Made by a program: the position numbers and the translations under genes. This document shows positions 19,849 to 27,619 of a stretch of DNA of 42,929 bases, piece after piece. This stretch comes from a virus. The stretch lies in the IMG/VR virus record IMGVR_UViG_3300045988_057118. One strand, written 5' to 3'. Each line of letters opens with the position of its first letter. Position 1 is the stretch's first letter. The notes under the pieces are model-generated. The model was not told the DNA's origin. It did no database searches and was given only the letters and a program-made list of their open reading frames with translations.

Positions 19849-20733
19849 ATGGCAGAATGGTCAAATGCAACCATGACTGATATCGGTGCTGATCTTCAAG
19901 CGAAGGTAAATGCAGGCAAAACTAAATTGACATTCACTAAAATCAAAGTCGGTAGTGGCGTTAATGCAACGAATCCATTGGCACTAACTGATGTAATCTC
20001 CTCTAAATGGGAGACTACTAATTTTGTAGTTAAACAAGAAGGTAAAATCGTAAGCGTTGATACGTTTATTACAAATAACGGCATAAAAGAGGCATTTAGA
20101 ATGTCAGAAATTGGGTTATTTGCCAATGATCCAGATAAAGGAGAAATATTGTATGCATACCTAACAGATCCTGAACCTGATAGAATGCCGGCAGAAGGGG
20201 GTGCGGTTGTTGTATCTCAAGAGCTAACTATCGGAATGATGTTTAGTAACACTGGCAATGTATCACTCACAGTTAATATGGGGGCGCTAGTTAATCAGGA
20301 ACAACTTAAAGAGCATAACTCATCTACTTCATCTCACTCTCCTATAACAGACCAAATCAAAGCAATCCTTGGAAGTGCAAATTGGAAAGACACTCCTGCT
20401 AGTACACTTGTTACAATTAAAAATTTGTTGGGCCAAGGTGCTATAGTAGCATCTAAACTTGATGCTAGCGCAGGCTTTGTTAAATTTGCAAATGGTTTCA
20501 CTATCCAGTGGGGAATAGGCGGCCAAGATAATGTAACTAAGACAGAAGTGCGATTCCCTATCAAATTTACAACTTTATTCATGGCGAACGCTATTGATGC
20601 GTACTGGTCGGGCTCAGATACCCCTAGGTATTTTGCCAACTCCGTGACTGAGAGCGACACCACTAAGGCCGTATTTTCGGCAAGTGATAGATATGCTGCT
20701 TCTTATTACTGGTTCGCTCTAGGAAAAATTTAA
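19849..20733 (+). CDS. Tail fibre protein; constant N-terminal about 222 aa fused to invertible C-terminal cassette C0
   Basis: 294 aa after the gpI-like gene. Its C-terminal 72 aa begins at a ccagtggggaata site that recurs inverted twice downstream in front of homologous alternative C-termini. Confidence 0.7.
   Translation: MAEWSNATMTDIGADLQAKVNAGKTKLTFTKIKVGSGVNATNPLALTDVISSKWETTNFVVKQEGKIVSVDTFITNNGIKEAFRMSEIGLFANDPDKGEILYAYLTDPEPDRMPAEGGAVVVSQELTIGMMFSNTGNVSLTVNMGALVNQEQLKEHNSSTSSHSPITDQIKAILGSANWKDTPASTLVTIKNLLGQGAIVASKLDASAGFVKFANGFTIQWGIGGQDNVTKTEVRFPIKFTTLFMANAIDAYWSGSDTPRYFANSVTESDTTKAVFSASDRYAASYYWFALGKI
20503..20520 (+). repeat. Recombination site S0 (ctatCCAGTGGGGAATAgg) inside the tail fibre gene
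   Basis: 13-bp core ccagtggggaata is identical to the inverted copy at 21193-21205. Imperfect palindromic arms flank a 3-bp agt spacer; encodes TIQWGIG in frame. Confidence 0.7.
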
Positions 20734-20981: not shown

Positions 20982-21231
20982 CTATCCACACAAAACTTCC
21001 AGTATCTGCTCTGTTAGTTAAGAATCTGATTGCGGTTCTATTAGATTGAGAAAATCCACTGTTCCACGAAATAAAGCATTCCGATCCAGAAGTCGCAACA
21101 CTGACAGAGTCGTCGGTGGCTAAGGATACCAGAACAGTACTGTTAATCGGTAGCGAAATATCTTTGTAGTACCTATTGGAATCAAACCAGGATATTCCCC
21201 ACTGGGGAGTTACTTTAATAATTCTATTGTT
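20965..21231 (-). other. Silent alternative tail-fibre C-terminal cassette C1 (promoterless, inverted)
   Basis: Open frame on the minus strand beginning at inverted site SA (VTPQWGISWFDSNRYYKDISLPINSTV ... FVWIAVGLS), homologous in length and pattern to C0 and C2; its stop overlaps site SB. Confidence 0.65.
21191..21208 (-). repeat. Recombination site SA (tattCCCCACTGGggagt), inverted copy of S0, 5 bp from the recombinase stop codon
   Basis: Reverse complement contains ccagtggggaata, identical over 13 bp to S0; encodes TPQWGI in phase with S0. Confidence 0.7.
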
Positions 21232-22061
21232 TTACGTAGTTCCCGAATGGTTTTGTGCGTGTATACCCTGGTAGTGATATCGCCTTGTTTATGACCTAAC
21301 AATGCGCGTAACGTGTTAGGCGGCGCAATCGCATCAAGTAGACTTGCAAATGTGTGCCGGGTATCGTGGATAGTATGCTTGCAGTTAAGTTGTTTCATAA
21401 TATCATGGAAATGCTTGCGAAATGATGTGTAGCTGATAGTGAATAGATAATTGTCTGTATCGTTGTATAATTGCTCAATTAATGGCATGATGCGGTGATG
21501 GATGGGAATGATACGCCCTTCACCAGCTTTTGTTTTAGCGTGTCTCACAATAAGGTATAATGATCGTCTATTGATATCTTGCCTACGTAAGTTAAGTAGC
21601 TCGCCGATACGGAGCCCGGTGTAGAGCAACATTAAAATCATTTGGGAATAAGAATTATCTATCGCCCATAATTTGTTGATTTGTTGGCGAGTGAATACTC
21701 TTCTTTTAATCATTGGTATATTGGGCCCTAGATTTAAGTGTGAGGCGTAATTAGTGATAGGGTAATCTTGGATGATTGCGTAATTAAATAATTGATTAAG
21801 TAACGTGCGGACTTTCTTACATGATGAGTAAGAAAGTCCTTTTACGTGCATGGAATTAATCACATTTTGAAGGTGCTGAAAATGAATATCCGTGATAGGC
21901 ATATCCGCTATGTTGGATATGTGTTTAAAAGCAATATGGTAAGACTTAACGACACTCTTAGTAATAGCTTGTGAGTGAATAGGCAACCACTCGTTAAATA
22001 GTTGCCTTAATGTAATGGTATTGCGTTGTCTACGTTTTAGTATAACGGCGTAACGGCGCAT
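21210..22061 (-). CDS. Tyrosine site-specific recombinase (Rci/shufflon-type invertase candidate)
   Basis: 283 aa with catalytic motifs TGLRIGEL (Arg), HDTRHTFAS (H-x-x-R), LGH, and TRVYTH (Tyr). RBS GGAGGTG; located directly adjacent to the invertible tail-fibre segment. Confidence 0.8.
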   Translation of the reverse strand: MRRYAVILKRRQRNTITLRQLFNEWLPIHSQAITKSVVKSYHIAFKHISNIADMPITDIHFQHLQNVINSMHVKGLSYSSCKKVRTLLNQLFNYAIIQDYPITNYASHLNLGPNIPMIKRRVFTRQQINKLWAIDNSYSQMILMLLYTGLRIGELLNLRRQDINRRSLYLIVRHAKTKAGEGRIIPIHHRIMPLIEQLYNDTDNYLFTISYTSFRKHFHDIMKQLNCKHTIHDTRHTFASLLDAIAPPNTLRALLGHKQGDITTRVYTHKTIRELRKTIELLK

Positions 22062-22635: not shown

Positions 22636-23187
22636 ATGGATATTCTTAATGATATTTTAATCATGCTCATCAGTGGTATATCGCATGAACATATAGTCAG
22701 TATGGGGGTAGTGATTATTTTAACCACTACATTGTTATTTGTGGACACAATACAGCGGATTGCTGCAGAAGTGTTGCGGTATAACAAAGATAATCACAGG
22801 CCTAATAATCCTATTACACTACTAACAACATTGACCTGGTATGGATGGGGAAAAGGTAGGTATATCGATGAAACTACCGGTGAAAGGCGTAGATATTTAA
22901 TGAGTGAGCGCCTTAGAGGTGATCTATTAAAGAAACTATGCATACAATATCCGGCATGGATGATACTATCCATTGTATTTATTTCATTACCTGATATCCC
23001 AATACCAAACACCAATCTATTCTTAGACCATATATTCTCTTATGCATTTATGCTGATACCATTCTTCGCTGAGTGTTGGTCTATTATTGAAAACCTACGT
23101 GAAATGGTTGAAGATGACCTAATTGATATAGGAAAAATATTTCAATATACGATTGAAATCATAAAGGCATGGAGGGGTAATGGATAA
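22636..23187 (+). CDS. Membrane protein, holin-like
   Basis: 183 aa with several predicted TM helices, first gene of the lysis cassette. Confidence 0.4.
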   Translation: MDILNDILIMLISGISHEHIVSMGVVIILTTTLLFVDTIQRIAAEVLRYNKDNHRPNNPITLLTTLTWYGWGKGRYIDETTGERRRYLMSERLRGDLLKKLCIQYPAWMILSIVFISLPDIPIPNTNLFLDHIFSYAFMLIPFFAECWSIIENLREMVEDDLIDIGKIFQYTIEIIKAWRGNG

Positions 23188-23572
23188 GCTAGCGATTATT
23201 AACCGCATTAAGCGGTCATATAAGTCCATTCGAATAGCTGGCATACGGCCAACAGGTGTATTAGCAACGAGGGCATTGGTCCTCGTCATGCTAGTACCGA
23301 TGATATTAGTCGTTGCCCAGTATGTGCTATCGACGATTAAGGGGTATGTATCCCCTGAAGCGAATCAGCTTATCGATAAGGGTATTCTTATAATTGACCA
23401 TATATTCGTACCATCAGTGCTTATGACCATTGTTGGATTGTGTGGCATGTTCATCGATAAGAACCATAACGGGATTCCAGATAAGCTTGAGGAACCAAAT
23501 ACATTGCCTATGAACAGACCTGGCATACAACAATTAGAGGATGATATTAACCATGACGAGAGGGGGAAATAA
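23180..23572 (+). CDS. Holin-like membrane protein (two TM segments)
   Basis: 130 aa with two hydrophobic helices and a charged C-terminus; coupled ATGGATAA overlap; immediately upstream of the endolysin. Confidence 0.45.
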   Translation: MDKLAIINRIKRSYKSIRIAGIRPTGVLATRALVLVMLVPMILVVAQYVLSTIKGYVSPEANQLIDKGILIIDHIFVPSVLMTIVGLCGMFIDKNHNGIPDKLEEPNTLPMNRPGIQQLEDDINHDERGK

Positions 23573-24148
23573 ATGTTTAGACAAATTACAATGGACGAGT
23601 TAAAAGACCTAGCGCTAGATGCCTATGGCCAAATTGAAAAGGCGTACTATCATTGGACAGGGGTAAAAGGTGGTAAGCACTTCACAGATTACCATATCAA
23701 CATCGACCGAGCAGGTACAATGTGGACCGATATAGAGACCTTAACCGATTATAAGGAACACACCTATATGCGCAATAGTAACGCTGTAGGCATTGCCATT
23801 GAAGCGTGTTGGGATGCAGTCAGTGAAAATAACCTAGGTAGTGAACCACCAACAAAAGAACAGTTGGCCACTATGACACAAATTATGGCGGTGCTTACTA
23901 TTAATGCAGGTGTGCCACTTGACCTACAACATCAGATGACGCACGCCGAAGCAGCAGATAATCGGGACGGCTTGGACCTCTATTATTTAGATCCGACGGG
24001 CTATCCAAATAATACGTACGGCCCAGACTCCAACGTTGACCGATGGGACCTCTTGGTGTGCCATGAGGGCGACGAACGATGGAGTGGTGGTGACTGGTTA
24101 CGTGGCACCGCTCGATGGTGGGGTGCTCAGTGGGGTAGTACAATTTAG
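23573..24148 (+). CDS. Endolysin, N-acetylmuramoyl-L-alanine amidase (Amidase_2 / PGRP fold)
   Basis: 191 aa with an Amidase_2-like pattern (YHWTGVKGGKHFTDYHINIDRAGT ... GIAIE ... MTHAEAAD). Confidence 0.8.
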   Translation: MFRQITMDELKDLALDAYGQIEKAYYHWTGVKGGKHFTDYHINIDRAGTMWTDIETLTDYKEHTYMRNSNAVGIAIEACWDAVSENNLGSEPPTKEQLATMTQIMAVLTINAGVPLDLQHQMTHAEAADNRDGLDLYYLDPTGYPNNTYGPDSNVDRWDLLVCHEGDERWSGGDWLRGTARWWGAQWGSTI

Positions 24149-24160
24149 GAAGGAGTTACC

Positions 24161-24622
24161 ATGTATGAAACTATCAAGAACAAAGTTATATCTGCGTTTA
24201 CTCTTAAGCGTGTTATTTGTGGTGTGCTTAGCATTATTTCCATCTATTTCGCATGCAGCCTCATCGGAGGGTACCTCGACACAAGAGCCGACTATCAGCG
24301 TACCCGTGAGAAGTTGGAACGAACTCAAAGGGCGCTTGATGAAAGCAGAAAGCTCAATCAACAACTCCGAGAAAGCATTGCAGCAAGCCAACAGCTTAAC
24401 CGCGACGCAGGGAACAGCATTAACAGAATTGAAGATTATCAACGAAGAACGGACGAAGGAATTGAACGCGCTCAAAGCAATCAACGAGAAACAGGGGCAA
24501 GAATTAACGAAAGCCTCCAATCTCTTGACAACGCAAGAAGCGAAATTGAACGAAGCCTCGACCTCATTAGAAGAATTGACAGAACAAATCAAACGCAACA
24601 AACGAACCGAACAGCGCCTTAA
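24161..24622 (+). CDS. Alternative overlapping ORF, i-spanin-like (N-terminal TM plus charged periplasmic domain)
   Basis: 153 aa, ATG 7 nt after AGGAAGGAG. Uses rare ctc/cga codons, so it may be a compositional artefact of the T-depleted segment. Confidence 0.3.
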   Translation: MYETIKNKVISAFTLKRVICGVLSIISIYFACSLIGGYLDTRADYQRTREKLERTQRALDESRKLNQQLRESIAASQQLNRDAGNSINRIEDYQRRTDEGIERAQSNQRETGARINESLQSLDNARSEIERSLDLIRRIDRTNQTQQTNRTAP

Positions 24623-24689
24623 ACGGCAACGTGACACATGGGCCGTGGTAAGCGGTGTATTTGGATTGGCAGGTGCAATTCGTCGATGA
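24165..24689 (+). CDS. Spanin-like periplasmic coiled-coil protein (N-terminal signal peptide, C-terminal TM anchor)
   Basis: Frame +1 relative to 24161; host-like codon usage (tta/ttg Leu); clear heptad coiled coil. N-terminal signal MKLSRTKLYLRLLLSVLFVVCLALFPSISHA, C-terminal WAVVSGVFGLAGAI. Confidence 0.4.
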   Translation: MKLSRTKLYLRLLLSVLFVVCLALFPSISHAASSEGTSTQEPTISVPVRSWNELKGRLMKAESSINNSEKALQQANSLTATQGTALTELKIINEERTKELNALKAINEKQGQELTKASNLLTTQEAKLNEASTSLEELTEQIKRNKRTEQRLKRQRDTWAVVSGVFGLAGAIRR

Positions 24690-24750
24690 CTGAGAGGTGA
24701 TCCATACATCTCCTGAGCATGAACAGGTGGACTCATGGATTGACTATATA

Positions 24751-24792
24751 AAAGACCTTACCAGGATATAACTTGGTAAGGTCTTTTTTTTA
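24751..24792 (+). terminator. Rho-independent terminator ending the late/lysis operon
   Basis: aaagaccttacc / ggtaaggtcttt hairpin followed by a T8 tract. Confidence 0.7.
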
Positions 24793-24858
24793 TATTTAAT
24801 TTATTGCATACAATCTAAAAATATGGTGTAATTAGGGTAATAATAGGAGGTGGGAGTA

Positions 24859-25336: not shown

Positions 25337-25364
25337 GCGGGTTCAAGTCCCGCCAACCGCACCA
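25337..25364 (+). other. attP core: tRNA/tmRNA 3'-end fragment (T-arm, acceptor 3' strand, CCA)
   Basis: gcggg ttcaagt cccgc caaccgc a cca forms a T-stem/loop plus acceptor with CCA, but no matching 5' acceptor strand or anticodon arm lies upstream. Confidence 0.6.
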
Positions 25365-25413: not shown

Positions 25414-25459
25414 TTTGACATCATAAAGTCTTATGCGGTTTGACATCATTTTGACATCA
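25414..25459 (+). repeat. Integrase arm-type sites, right arm (three direct TTTGACATCA copies)
   Basis: Copies at 25414-25423, 25439-25448 and 25450-25459; the last overlaps the int stop codon. Confidence 0.55.
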
Positions 25460-26530
25460 GAATATTTTAGCGATGCGCTCCACGATGTCATCTTCCATTT
25501 TAGGAGTGACGTGTGAGTAGGTATCCATTGTTTCTTGAAATGAAGCGTGCCCTAGACGTTCCTGTATGGCTTTCATATTTGCGCCATTTTCAATGAGAAG
25601 AGTAGCGTGAGTATGTCTAGTGCCATGCATTGTAAAAGATGGCTTACCGATTAAATTAGCGTATTTCTTACATAACTTACTAACCTCATCAGGACAGCGA
25701 GGTGCACCTTTGATGCCAGGGAATACTAGATTGTTATTAATCCAGTTCATTGTCTTAATTCTGCGTTTATCTATGACTATTTTATGCTTAATAAGTTCCT
25801 GGAGTGTATCCGTATCGATTGCTATTACACGTTTAGAGGATGTTGTTTTAGTTGTATTTGATATAACTGCAGTTGATCCGATTTTGAGTGCTGTTTGTGA
25901 GATAGATATGGTCGATTTCTTAAAGTCGATATCAGACCATCTTAGGCCTAACAATTCAGAGCGTCGCATACCAGTTGCAAATGCTAATTTAAAGAGTGCG
26001 TGATGTTCTGAGTTAGATATATTGGATAAGAAGTTTTTAACCTCATCTACAGATAGCGTTACCATATGCCGAACTTTAACCTGCTTTGGCCGGTCTATGT
26101 TTTTCATATAGTTCTTAGGGATGATGTCATCTTTTACCGCCTGCTCTAATATTGAGCCTAGAATTGTCATTGTGTAGGAGATAGTTCTTGATGATAATCC
26201 GCCCATCGACTCAAAGACATAGCGTAATGTATTGGGTTTAATCTCAGCTAGCTTTACATTGCCAATTTTGTTTCTAATATAGCGATTTATGATGCCTGTA
26301 TAACTTTGGTAGGTAGATGGCGTTATGGTCTTTTCTTTTAATTGTAACCATATATTAATCCATGTATTCAACGAGATAGTATCATCGAAATTTGCACATG
26401 ATTGATTAGTACTGATATACTTTTCCATGGCTTCAGTAGCAGCTTTCTTAGTGCTGCCATAAAAGTATTTTCGCTTACCGTTTATCACCTTAGATACCTG
26501 GTAGCGACCATCGGCTCGTTTTTTAGCCAT
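25457..26530 (-). CDS. int: Tyrosine integrase
   Basis: Start at MAKKRADGRYQ with AAGGAGG RBS (the ORF track's upstream extension lacks an RBS). C-terminal catalytic motifs HGTRHTHATL, LGH, YSH; adjacent to attP. Confidence 0.9.
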   Translation of the reverse strand: MAKKRADGRYQVSKVINGKRKYFYGSTKKAATEAMEKYISTNQSCANFDDTISLNTWINIWLQLKEKTITPSTYQSYTGIINRYIRNKIGNVKLAEIKPNTLRYVFESMGGLSSRTISYTMTILGSILEQAVKDDIIPKNYMKNIDRPKQVKVRHMVTLSVDEVKNFLSNISNSEHHALFKLAFATGMRRSELLGLRWSDIDFKKSTISISQTALKIGSTAVISNTTKTTSSKRVIAIDTDTLQELIKHKIVIDKRRIKTMNWINNNLVFPGIKGAPRCPDEVSKLCKKYANLIGKPSFTMHGTRHTHATLLIENGANMKAIQERLGHASFQETMDTYSHVTPKMEDDIVERIAKIF

Positions 26531-26633
26531 AAAAATAACCTCCTTGACATAGTGAATAAGCCTTAGAGGTTTTATGTGATATAATGATATTGGAGTAAAA
26601 ATGAAGTACCTCTGAGGTATGTAGTTTTTAATG

Positions 26634-26662
26634 GCCCTCACTGCGGTGAGGGCTTATTTTTA
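26634..26662 (+). terminator. Intrinsic terminator-like hairpin between int and the abi gene
   Basis: gccctcac tgcg gtgagggc hairpin followed by ttattttta. Confidence 0.45.
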
Positions 26663-27619
26663 TGTAATTATCTTCTTGGTATTTGAGTGCCAATCAATAG
26701 GAAATCCTAATTTTATTAAGATATCATTTATACGAATAGATTCGAGCTTTGGAGCCAATTTTTTCACTAACTTTAGTACCGAGTTATGTAGTGTGGCATA
26801 TTCGATGCGGCTTAAAAAACATTGTAGTGAAAGAAAAACAGTGTAGGGAGTGTTTCTTGGGGTATTTGACGTAATGCAATATTTAGAGTGTAATGGCGCC
26901 CAATAGCGATCATCTGCGGGGCAATGGTGCCCGATTAATCTATTACTGTGCGCGCAAACGTTTCTGATGTCGTGCATGTTTTTTACAAAGCTTATCATTG
27001 TAGCCGGAGGAAATTGCCCCGGATTTTGAATATGTTCTGAAATAAAGCTTATGCAATCACGAGCTACTTTGTTTTGTACAGAAGTCGTTGAATTAGTTAA
27101 TAAATATCGAAATGCTCCAAATTCAATATAGCTAGATAATACCCAAATGGGTACTTTCTTATATTTATTTATGTAGTGATAAATACTGGAGTCTTTATAG
27201 CGTTTACAATTATATCTTGTAAGTATTTTAGATAGTTTAGATATAGTCTCTATACTCTCTAGGCGCTTAGTGGAATCGTAACAATTTATATCTAAATAAG
27301 GGTAAGGGTCGTTTGGGAATGTCTCGGAAAATCTATGAACAAACAACGCTTTTAAGTGTGTTTCTGCGCTAAGAATGGCATTTAGTAGTTCTTGCTTAAG
27401 CTCCTTTTCGAATCGATATAGTTTAGCAATTTCATCAAAGTTAGTATTAGCGGTGTAATTATCATTGTTATCGTGTGGAAAAAAATTAGCATAGCCGTTA
27501 ATAATATTGTAATAGTTTTGACTTAACAAATATGCTTTTGCCTTATCAATATCATTAATGACAAGCTTTCGTCCAAGAAGTATTTGAATTTGCTCATCTA
27601 TCGTTTTAAATTCTTTCAA
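26660..27619 (-). CDS. Abortive-infection protein, Abi_2 family (AbiD/AbiF-like)
   Basis: 319 aa; N-terminal EQIQILLGRKLVIND ... YYNIINGY and a conserved IRNVCAHSNRLIG motif typical of Abi_2 proteins. Confidence 0.7.
   Translation of the reverse strand: MKEFKTIDEQIQILLGRKLVINDIDKAKAYLLSQNYYNIINGYANFFPHDNNDNYTANTNFDEIAKLYRFEKELKQELLNAILSAETHLKALFVHRFSETFPNDPYPYLDINCYDSTKRLESIETISKLSKILTRYNCKRYKDSSIYHYINKYKKVPIWVLSSYIEFGAFRYLLTNSTTSVQNKVARDCISFISEHIQNPGQFPPATMISFVKNMHDIRNVCAHSNRLIGHHCPADDRYWAPLHSKYCITSNTPRNTPYTVFLSLQCFLSRIEYATLHNSVLKLVKKLAPKLESIRINDILIKLGFPIDWHSNTKKIIT

Follow-up and report, generated by a model that had tools for sequence, protein, structure and literature searches.

Two co-linear open reading frames behind the endolysin gene

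The DNA analysed here, referred to as the window, is the whole 42,929-nucleotide (nt) stretch of the virus record IMGVR_UViG_3300045988_057118 from IMG/VR, and the subject is a pair of co-linear genes, frame A and frame B, that occupy almost the same letters directly after the endolysin gene. A sequence-only reading of the window had described this segment as strongly depleted in T, open in two plus frames and one minus frame, and a candidate for spanins of unusual topology. The features found at the locus were as follows.

23573..24148, plus strand: endolysin, Amidase_2-like (Pfam Amidase_2, E 1.9e-5; phrog_5867 endolysin, E 5e-35)
24150..24155, plus strand: Shine-Dalgarno sequence AAGGAG, common to the A and B starts
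24161..24622, plus strand: frame A gene, 153 amino acids, an open frame that matches phrog_18860
24165..24689, plus strand: frame B gene, 174 amino acids, starting at ATG 24165 in the +1 frame relative to A
24098..24736, minus strand: open reading frame (ORF) of 212 amino acids, open in the window, without a family match
24750..24797, plus strand: intrinsic terminator, a 16-bp stem and a T run, closing the late operon directly after B

The T content of positions 24270-24640 was 0.135 compared to a window mean of 0.285 (standard deviation 0.040 for stretches of 370 nt), and the window-wide minimum of 0.132 was found in the 370-nt stretch beginning at 24262. The depletion in T that had been reported is thus real, the segment is the T-poorest stretch of the window, and its AT skew was approximately 0.5 between 24300 and 24600. 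The three open frames named in the sequence-only reading were all recovered as A, B and 24098..24736. The minus-strand ORF was rejected as a gene because it is broken in the homologous loci L091, L288, L290 and L291; no family match was found for it, and it is a by-product of the T depletion on the plus strand.

The overlap takes up 458 of the 462 nt of A, and B extends 67 nt beyond the A stop codon. The arrangement of Rz1 within Rz, with the second frame at +1 but running the full length, was thus present as described. The endolysin stop codon lies 12 nt before the A ATG. The ribosome-binding site that had been called strong is the AAGGAG at 24150-24155, with a spacing of 5 nt to the ATG of A and 9 nt to that of B, and the two start codons lie 4 nt apart in the string ATGTATG. 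This string, with a single purine-rich Shine-Dalgarno sequence 5-7 nt upstream, was conserved in 270 loci. Frame B is open already from TTG 24036, upstream of ATG 24165; an extension of B to this TTG was rejected, as it runs into the endolysin and the conserved start is ATG 24165.

Both frames are retained among homologues

The retention of the two frames was counted in 180 distinct homologous DNAs. In 178 of these the A ATG was located exactly 4 nt ahead of the B ATG, and the products were 135-166 and 160-179 amino acids long for A and B, respectively, the length of A varying more than that of B. Among protein clusters, 486 were homologous to frame A and 980 to frame B. Both frames were open in L090 and L091, where B is 59-60% identical to that of the window. 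In the Veillonella dispar type (L231-L287), which is approximately 38% identical in B, the arrangement of A and B was unchanged; A began with MY[DE]KIK followed by a membrane helix and then a polar helix, and the third plus frame was closed in this subfamily. In L288, L290 and L291, at 25-30% identity, an A-like ORF of 140-155 amino acids with a membrane helix and a polar helix was present in the same frame relation to B, with different start offsets: A started 16 nt upstream of the B ATG in L288 but 2 nt downstream of it in L291. When the profiles of window-type and remote A proteins were compared, they aligned co-linearly, with a probability of 80% and an E value of 1.4e-5.

The sequence-only reading had judged that B looks like the real gene, which would make A a spurious frame, and had named the loss of one frame among homologues as the result that would speak against its proposal. 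Both frames were kept open in every subfamily, and both are under purifying selection at the amino-acid level, which does not agree with a spurious A.

The double openness also affects how the locus is stored. Gene callers pick A or B at random, and databases hold two apparently unrelated families of hypothetical proteins for one DNA. Any insertion or deletion in the doubly open region gives a full-length chimeric ORF, and chimeras joining the A N-terminus to the B C-terminus, or the reverse, are stored as separate clusters; entries of the protein collection affected by chimeras or split families include, for example, P0187, P0252, P0256, P0266 and P0276. Programmed frameshifting as a source of the chimeric A/B proteins was rejected, since the one examined was a plain 2-nt insertion and the others were as insertions and deletions would give. 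A 2-nt (GT) insertion at the equivalent of approximately 24306 was found in L293, L294 and L295, that is, in at least three samples. The insertion joins A residues 1-48 to B residues 50-174, and both normal products are cut short. Such a variant could come from a defective prophage, or it could hint that a single chain carrying both anchors is functional.

Composition and selection in the overlap

Each frame was recoded by resampling synonymous codons with each phage's own codon usage, and the stop codons created in the other frame were counted. When B of the window was recoded, a mean of 14.7 stops was obtained in frame A (minimum 4 in 20,000 trials), and when A was recoded, a mean of 10.3 stops was obtained in frame B (minimum 2), compared to zero observed in either frame. 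Across six lineages, recoding of B gave 6-16 stops in A and recoding of A gave 5-12.5 stops in B, and the probability of zero stops was ≤0.003 and mostly <2e-4. The frequency of T at the third codon position of B (B3) was 0.10-0.15, compared to 0.25-0.38 at third positions in neighbouring genes. B3 coincides with the first codon position of A (A1), the place at which a T would give frame A a stop codon (TAA, TAG or TGA), and the low T at B3 therefore keeps frame A open. Codon usage had been thought to favour B over A. The codon-usage scores were nearly alike, -0.035 for A and -0.048 for B, and both were lower than that of every other gene tested, as predicted by mutual constraint, so that codon usage gives no preference to B.

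The nucleotide diversity by codon position was compared between the overlap and the adjacent endolysin. In the window subfamily, diversity at positions 1, 2 and 3 was 0.052, 0.038 and 0.236 in the endolysin, and 0.088, 0.040 and 0.047 in the overlap read in A phase. The peak in the overlap was at A1 (that is, B3), 2.7 times below a free wobble position, and a peak at A1 rules out coding by A only. In three other subfamilies the overlap gave 0.29/0.16/0.14, 0.10/0.05/0.11 and 0.24/0.16/0.17, with third positions of the adjacent endolysins at 0.40-0.48. Over the four subfamilies the most variable overlap position was 0.09-0.29 compared to 0.24-0.48 for the endolysin third position, and no free wobble was found anywhere. 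In one subfamily the third positions of both frames were equally variable, and the strongest constraint lay on the position read second in A and first in B.

In distant pairs of homologues, the identity expected in one frame was predicted by resampling the third positions of the other. The identity of A was 0.28-0.58, compared to 0.17-0.29 expected under selection on B only, giving z values of 4.4-8.1 when B's own T-poor codon usage was applied and of as much as 11 when general codon usage was applied. In the opposite direction, for B given A, the z values were 4-11. Between the window and L250, for instance, the identity was 0.38 in B and 0.36 in A. In close relatives, substitutions silent in B caused milder replacements in A than all those possible (z 5.9 for transitions and 2.6 for transversions), and substitutions silent in A caused milder replacements in B (z 4.6 and 3.6, respectively); in this test the nearest-neighbour tree only approximates independent events. 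A comparison of rates within the close set is a weak test, its endolysin baseline being inflated by recombination, and reliance was placed on the deep-pair, conservative-replacement and codon-position tests.

These findings show that each frame is conserved beyond the constraint imposed by the other (z 4-11). At the level that bioinformatics allows, 24161-24689 is very probably a true dual-coding locus.

The frame A protein

The predicted A protein begins with a short, basic N-terminus, MYETIKNKVISAFTLKR, followed by a membrane helix at residues 18-39 (24212-24277). The best 19-residue insertion energy averaged approximately -0.6 over 223 sequences. After the helix come approximately 115 residues rich in Arg, Glu, Gln and Asp, in which a heptad scan found a weak heptad pattern, and the AlphaFold2 (AF2) model of A is a single helix from residue 2 to 151 with a predicted local distance difference test (pLDDT) value of 83. 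A matches phrog_18860 end to end (E 5e-56), a PHROG family without an assigned function. The ATG, the MY[ED]xIK motif, the membrane helix and the polar helix are conserved down to 25-38% identity. The N-terminal membrane helix and charged domain that had been likened to an i-spanin (Rz) were thus found, and A is predicted to be an i-spanin-like type II membrane protein with its long helix facing the periplasm.

The remote A-like proteins (L288, 3485-3974; L290, 3500-3983; L291, 3501-3998) contain a conserved Cys in the context ID/LD/IK-E-C-Q/K, and a Cys was found at a similar position in two of the three remote B-like proteins (LEHC, LQDC). Intermolecular disulfides as in classical spanins are possible for these proteins.

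The frame B protein

The features of the B protein, all on the plus strand, were as follows.

24165..24257, plus strand: signal peptide, residues 1-31, MKLSRTKLYLRLLLSVLFVVCLALFPSISHA, with a signal peptidase I (SPase I)-type S-H-A|A site
24282..24329, plus strand: conserved N-terminal motif QEPTISVPvrSWNELK, residues 40-55, in a flexible stretch just ahead of the coiled coil
24306..24602, plus strand: coiled coil, approximately residues 48-146, with uninterrupted heptads
24591..24641, plus strand: polybasic motif KRNKRTEQRLKRQRDTW, residues 143-159, where conservation in the family is highest
24639..24686, plus strand: C-terminal tail WAVVSGVFGLAGAI-RR, 14 Gly/Ala-rich hydrophobic residues with a basic end

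In other subfamilies the small-x-small cleavage site of the B signal peptide reads ALA|A, SFA|S or VSA|D. A Cys in the hydrophobic region of the signal is not conserved, and none of 223 B sequences matched a relaxed lipobox, [LVI][ASTVI][GAS]C, within the first 40 residues, in agreement with the earlier remark that B has no clear lipobox. In the AF2 model of B a helix at residues 5-24 is followed by a disordered stretch and then by one helix from 48 to 173, with a pLDDT >90 over residues 50-160. Within the N-terminal motif, E41, P42, T43, I44, V46, P47, W51, L54 and K55 are invariant, and in remote relatives the motif recurs as T-I-x-V/M-P..W/Y-N-x-L-K. The heptads of the coiled coil have invariant a and d positions with 3-4-3-4 spacing. 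The heptad scan placed the weaker heptads of A in register with those of B on the DNA.

The alignment of B contains 56 invariant columns. The polybasic motif has the sequence K-R-N-K-R-T-E-Q-R-L-K-R-Q-R-D-T-W, in which K143, R147, T148, E149, Q150, R151, L152, R154, Q155, R156, D157, T158 and W159 are invariant, and RRQR[DN]xW is kept in remote relatives. The tail past the last QR was 18 or 20 residues long in 220 of the 223 sequences. Its hydrophobic run comprises 12-14 residues and ends in K or R; the AF2 helix continues through it, and the best 19-residue insertion energy was strongly positive (mean +11), which is unfavourable for a normal stop-transfer helix. Possible roles for the tail are that of a weak membrane anchor or of a peptide that inserts into a membrane. 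Of the topology that had been proposed for B, the signal peptide, the heptad coiled coil and a C-terminal hydrophobic segment were confirmed; the segment, 12-14 residues long and weakly hydrophobic, is only a possible transmembrane anchor. B does not fit a unimolecular spanin (u-spanin), to which it had been compared, since a lipoylation signal is absent and the periplasmic domain of B is all-alpha and not beta-rich.

The lysis cassette, its host and neighbouring genes

Two further genes precede the endolysin in the window.

22636..23187, plus strand: membrane-protein gene, phrog_23091 (function not assigned there), holin or antiholin candidate
23180..23572, plus strand: membrane-protein gene, phrog_27828 (function not assigned there), holin or antiholin candidate

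These two genes overlap, and their translations show hydrophobic segments. In related cassettes a Phage_holin_4_1 gene often holds the position upstream of the endolysin. The A/B pair was always the next gene after the endolysin, 12-140 nt downstream, and this was so for four unrelated endolysin families: Amidase_2 in the window, Peptidase_M15 in L090 and L091, GH25 in L288-L292 and Amidase_3 in the V. dispar type. In the window, no promoter-like site of the sigma-70 type above the minimum of 9 of 12 was found between the endolysin and the pair, and no ORF with a lipobox fit for a canonical outer-membrane spanin (o-spanin) or u-spanin was found in the whole window.

The genomic homologues were all from Veillonella parvula, Veillonella atypica or uncultured Veillonella, and the more distant ones from V. 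dispar and Veillonella sp., with one source name giving Dialister. Veillonella hosts are diderm Firmicutes (Negativicutes). The position directly after an Amidase_2 endolysin, where spanins are found in lysis cassettes, and a diderm host despite the Firmicute-like genes had both been anticipated by the sequence-only reading, and both held (hosts V. parvula, V. atypica and V. dispar). Being the constant last member of the cassette beside interchangeable endolysins, in a phage of a diderm host, is a spanin signature (PMC6139136). No Lol genes are present in Negativicutes and no acylated outer-membrane proteins were found in V. parvula, and diderm Terrabacteria have been described as building an outer membrane without lipoproteins, which Negativicutes apparently lack there (PMC5491611, PMC11784454). 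Without Lol, a lipoprotein o-spanin could not reach the outer membrane here, which would account for the missing lipobox.

The endolysin and A lie in one reading frame, separated by a TAG and 12 nt (24146-24163), and read-through of the stop codon would fuse them. Such a fusion was rejected, since the common frame is found only in the window type and not in L090; it is probably a coincidence. The chromosome of V. parvula UTDB1-3 (L002, L006) carries two prophages with diverged copies of the pair, whose A proteins are 99% and 89% identical to that of the window.

Further along the window, a match to the 3' end of transfer-messenger RNA was found at 25337-25353 (Rfam RF00023, model positions 347-363 of 374, E 0.0033), beside an integrase gene at 25457..26641 on the minus strand, and is probably the attachment core in ssrA. 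An abortive-infection-like gene of the Abi_2 family (26660..27619, minus strand, E 2.4e-35) adjoins the integrase and is likely a prophage-borne defence gene. A second tyrosine recombinase (21210..22061, minus strand, Phage_integrase E 3.6e-20) lies just past the tail-fibre gene at 19849..20733, and the 3' end of the fibre gene is flanked by an inverted repeat of 18 nt, whose arms at 20500-20517 and 21193-21210 are 89% complementary and lie 675 nt apart. Repeat and recombinase are a candidate invertible switch of the fibre C-terminus. The window looks like a complete temperate phage of approximately 43 kb, and its IMG/VR relatives are 42-43 kb in length.

Proposed function of the A/B pair

We propose, with a probability of roughly 0.6, that A and B form a lipoprotein-independent, spanin-like two-component device for disruption of the outer membrane, a function inferred from sequence, position and host. 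A single Shine-Dalgarno sequence would load ribosomes onto either ATG and so fix the ratio of A to B. A would insert in the inner membrane with its N-terminus inside, and B would be exported by the Sec pathway, its signal peptide being cleaved without lipidation. The heptad helices of A and B would then form a homo- or hetero-oligomeric rod across the periplasm, with approximately 100-125 helical residues spanning 15-19 nm. In the favoured arrangement, A and B would pair in parallel and in register, with the A anchor at one end of the rod. At the other end the basic and hydrophobic tail of B would jut approximately 20 residues past the C-terminus of A and engage the outer membrane; alternatively, B might contact the second membrane through its N-terminal motif. 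After the endolysin has removed the peptidoglycan, the A/B complex would destabilise or fuse the membranes.

The stronger form of this proposal, which we put forward more tentatively and at somewhat less than even odds, is a previously unrecognised class of spanin for diderm Firmicutes: a lipoprotein-free, two-subunit rod spanning the envelope, both of whose coiled coils would be encoded by one DNA in the same register behind one ribosome-binding site, with A as the inner-membrane anchor and B supplying a polybasic, fusion-peptide-like tail for the outer membrane. As part of that form, the full-length overlap would perhaps predate the divergence of subfamilies that are now only 25-30% identical.

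Several observations weigh against the proposed spanin-like role or the dual coding beneath it. B does not carry the lipoprotein signal that defines o-spanins and u-spanins. No spanin family matched A or B in Pfam and NCBIfam, the best being LysB TIGR03495 with 13.9 bits compared to a cut-off of 92.75, and the A model found no match in a Foldseek search of BFVD, where a single long helix is uninformative. A hinge, by which the membranes are drawn together in the Rz model, is absent from both the A and the B helix, and periplasmic cysteines are absent from the window-type proteins. Cargo genes unrelated to lysis are also typically found where a late operon ends beside an attachment site (att). 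For the selection tests, the deep-pair comparisons presuppose saturated synonymous sites; mosaic recombination is evident among subfamilies and could inflate the signal of the pairs at 57-69% identity, though hardly those at 36-42%; and the neutral baseline of the close set is uncertain, the synonymous rate in the non-overlapped B tail being only approximately 1.6 times the rate of changes silent in B that alter A.

The interpretation given in the sequence-only reading is therefore partly right, in the spanin position, the unusual topology and the diderm host, and wrong in discarding frame A.

Alternative explanations

The alternative that survives best, although we consider it unlikely, is that B alone spans the envelope in the manner of a u-spanin. 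Its tail would be the inner-membrane anchor, the motif EPTISVP..W would attach to a component that lies in the outer membrane or tethers the peptidoglycan, for example OmpM, and A would be a regulator or a redundant inner-membrane partner. A signal peptide combined with a C-terminal hydrophobic segment ending in RR fits a cytoplasmic C-terminus, the N-terminal motif of B is invariant, and B is somewhat more constrained than A. The hydrophobic run is, however, just 12-14 residues long, rich in Gly, Ala and Ser and with a strongly positive insertion energy, and the eight basic residues before it would be left in the periplasm, contrary to the positive-inside rule. The conservation of A, its helix included, reaches about as deep as that of B, further than a dispensable accessory would require. 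The 2-nt insertion variant (at least three samples) keeps the coiled coil and tail of B, swaps the signal peptide for the A membrane helix and loses the A helix, as B spanning alone would allow, but it may just be a defective prophage.

It is less likely still that A and B are real envelope proteins but not lysis effectors, acting for instance in superinfection exclusion or lysogenic conversion, or as modulators of division or secretion. Neither protein is homologous to any spanin, the site beside att and the integrase is typical of cargo genes, and source annotations are generic, such as 'cell division protein' or 'chromosome segregation ATPase'. Against this, the pair follows the endolysin at 12-140 nt, with no promoter-like site between them in the window and a terminator only after B. 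It does so behind four endolysin families and in different phage backbones, where a cargo gene, and not the endolysin, would be expected to vary. The window, moreover, holds no other candidate for disruption of the outer membrane.

That only B is a gene, A being an artefact of T-poor composition and of gene-caller habit, is very improbable. B3 is the most variable codon position, B has more called homologues (980 compared to 486 clusters), and its length is steadier than that of A. Yet the T depletion at B3 is what keeps A open and itself needs explaining, and the z values of 4.4-8.1 for A were obtained above a B-only null that already has B's T-poor usage. The substitutions silent in B were skewed to conservative changes in A, and the ATG of A, its MY[ED]xIK motif, membrane helix and helix are kept to 25-38% identity.

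That A is the only gene, the choice made in PHROG and in many gene calls, with B as a by-product, is scarcely credible: phrog_18860 spans A end to end, the Shine-Dalgarno spacing is closer for A and a charged helical protein would naturally have little T at first codon positions, but a diversity peak at A1 is absurd for an A-only gene, the 56 invariant columns of B include a perfect heptad core and RTEQRLxRQRDTW reaching past the A stop, B stands at z 4-11 above the A-only null, and recoding of A predicts 5-12 stops in frame B.

Detection and significance

When 50,697 deposited phage genomes were searched by blastn and tblastn with the region and with both proteins, no match was obtained, to which the low-complexity filter may contribute. 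Functional annotation of A and B with Pfam, NCBIfam and PHROG returned only coiled-coil noise, except for phrog_18860 with A. A literature search on spanins in Veillonella or Negativicutes found nothing relevant, and a 2025 survey of lytic proteins is silent on them (PMC12596118). Spanin surveys that demand a lipobox (PMC6139136; PMC12596118) cannot detect the A/B pair. Canonical spanins need an outer-membrane lipoprotein, and catalogues that require a lipobox miss the phages of Negativicutes entirely.

The locus bears on how phages breach the outer membrane of diderm Terrabacteria. The candidate is abundant, with hundreds of variants in human-associated Veillonella prophages, and V. parvula is genetically tractable, so that the candidate can be tested. 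Among long dual-coding genes read from the same strand in tailed phages, it is also one of the clearest cases by bioinformatics, with approximately 460 nt in which both products are conserved to 25-40% identity. If the coiled coils of A and B pair, one DNA sequence would encode both strands of a heteromeric coiled coil.

Comparison with known systems

The closest comparison is with the two-component spanins, of which lambda Rz/Rz1 is embedded and P2 LysB/LysC overlapped (Kongari et al. 2018, PMC6139136). As in these, A and B are the last genes of the lysis cassette in a phage of a diderm host, the first protein combines a membrane helix at its N-terminus with a helical, coiled-coil domain in the periplasm (approximately 150 amino acids), and the second gene is in the +1 frame of the first, in all subfamilies examined. 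B ends beyond A, as in the overlapped class. A has the structure by which an i-spanin is defined, an N-terminal transmembrane domain and a coiled-coil periplasmic domain, whereas B has neither the lipobox nor the Cys at +1 of an o-spanin. In place of a small proline-rich lipoprotein, B is a 174-amino acid coiled coil with an SPase I signal. The overlap is near-total (458 of the 462 nt of A) and in its extent lies outside the three described architectures (PMC6139136); a single Shine-Dalgarno sequence precedes the two starts. A and B have no sequence similarity to the Rz, Rz1 and LysB models, and the Veillonella host differs in having no Lol pathway for delivery of a lipoprotein to the outer membrane.

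The unimolecular spanin gp11 of phage T1 has a lipoylation signal, a C-terminal transmembrane domain and a mainly beta periplasmic domain (PMC6139136). B resembles it in that one polypeptide carries an export signal at the N-terminus and a hydrophobic segment at the C-terminus, and in being encoded last in the lysis cassette. Unlike gp11, B lacks a lipoylation signal, a single long alpha helix makes up its periplasmic domain, its C-terminal segment comprises just 12-14 weakly hydrophobic residues, and it is always encoded together with a second conserved protein.

The disruptin gp28 of phage phiKT is a cationic outer-membrane disruptor resembling antimicrobial peptides, from a phage without spanins (bioRxiv 10.1101/515445). 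The proposed A/B device would share with it a breach of the outer membrane that is independent of lipoproteins, and the C-terminus of B consists of a polybasic stretch and an amphipathic or hydrophobic peptide, whose membrane-active role is conjectural. B differs from the disruptin in being an exported coiled-coil protein of 174 amino acids with a partner, and no small, free cationic peptide; only its last 32 residues or so are polybasic and hydrophobic.

Relative to known spanins, the kind of system, a spanin-like lysis pair, is familiar; new are the A/B architecture and the lipoprotein-free second subunit.

Long same-strand overlapping genes are found in small phages, as in D/E and A/B/K of phiX174. 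These share with the Veillonella locus the coding of two proteins by one stretch in different frames and the involvement of a lysis function. In contrast, frames A and B are co-linear nearly throughout and start 4 nt apart behind one ribosome-binding site, their products are structurally similar heptad-repeat proteins, and they are carried by a 43-kb tailed phage without obvious pressure on genome size.

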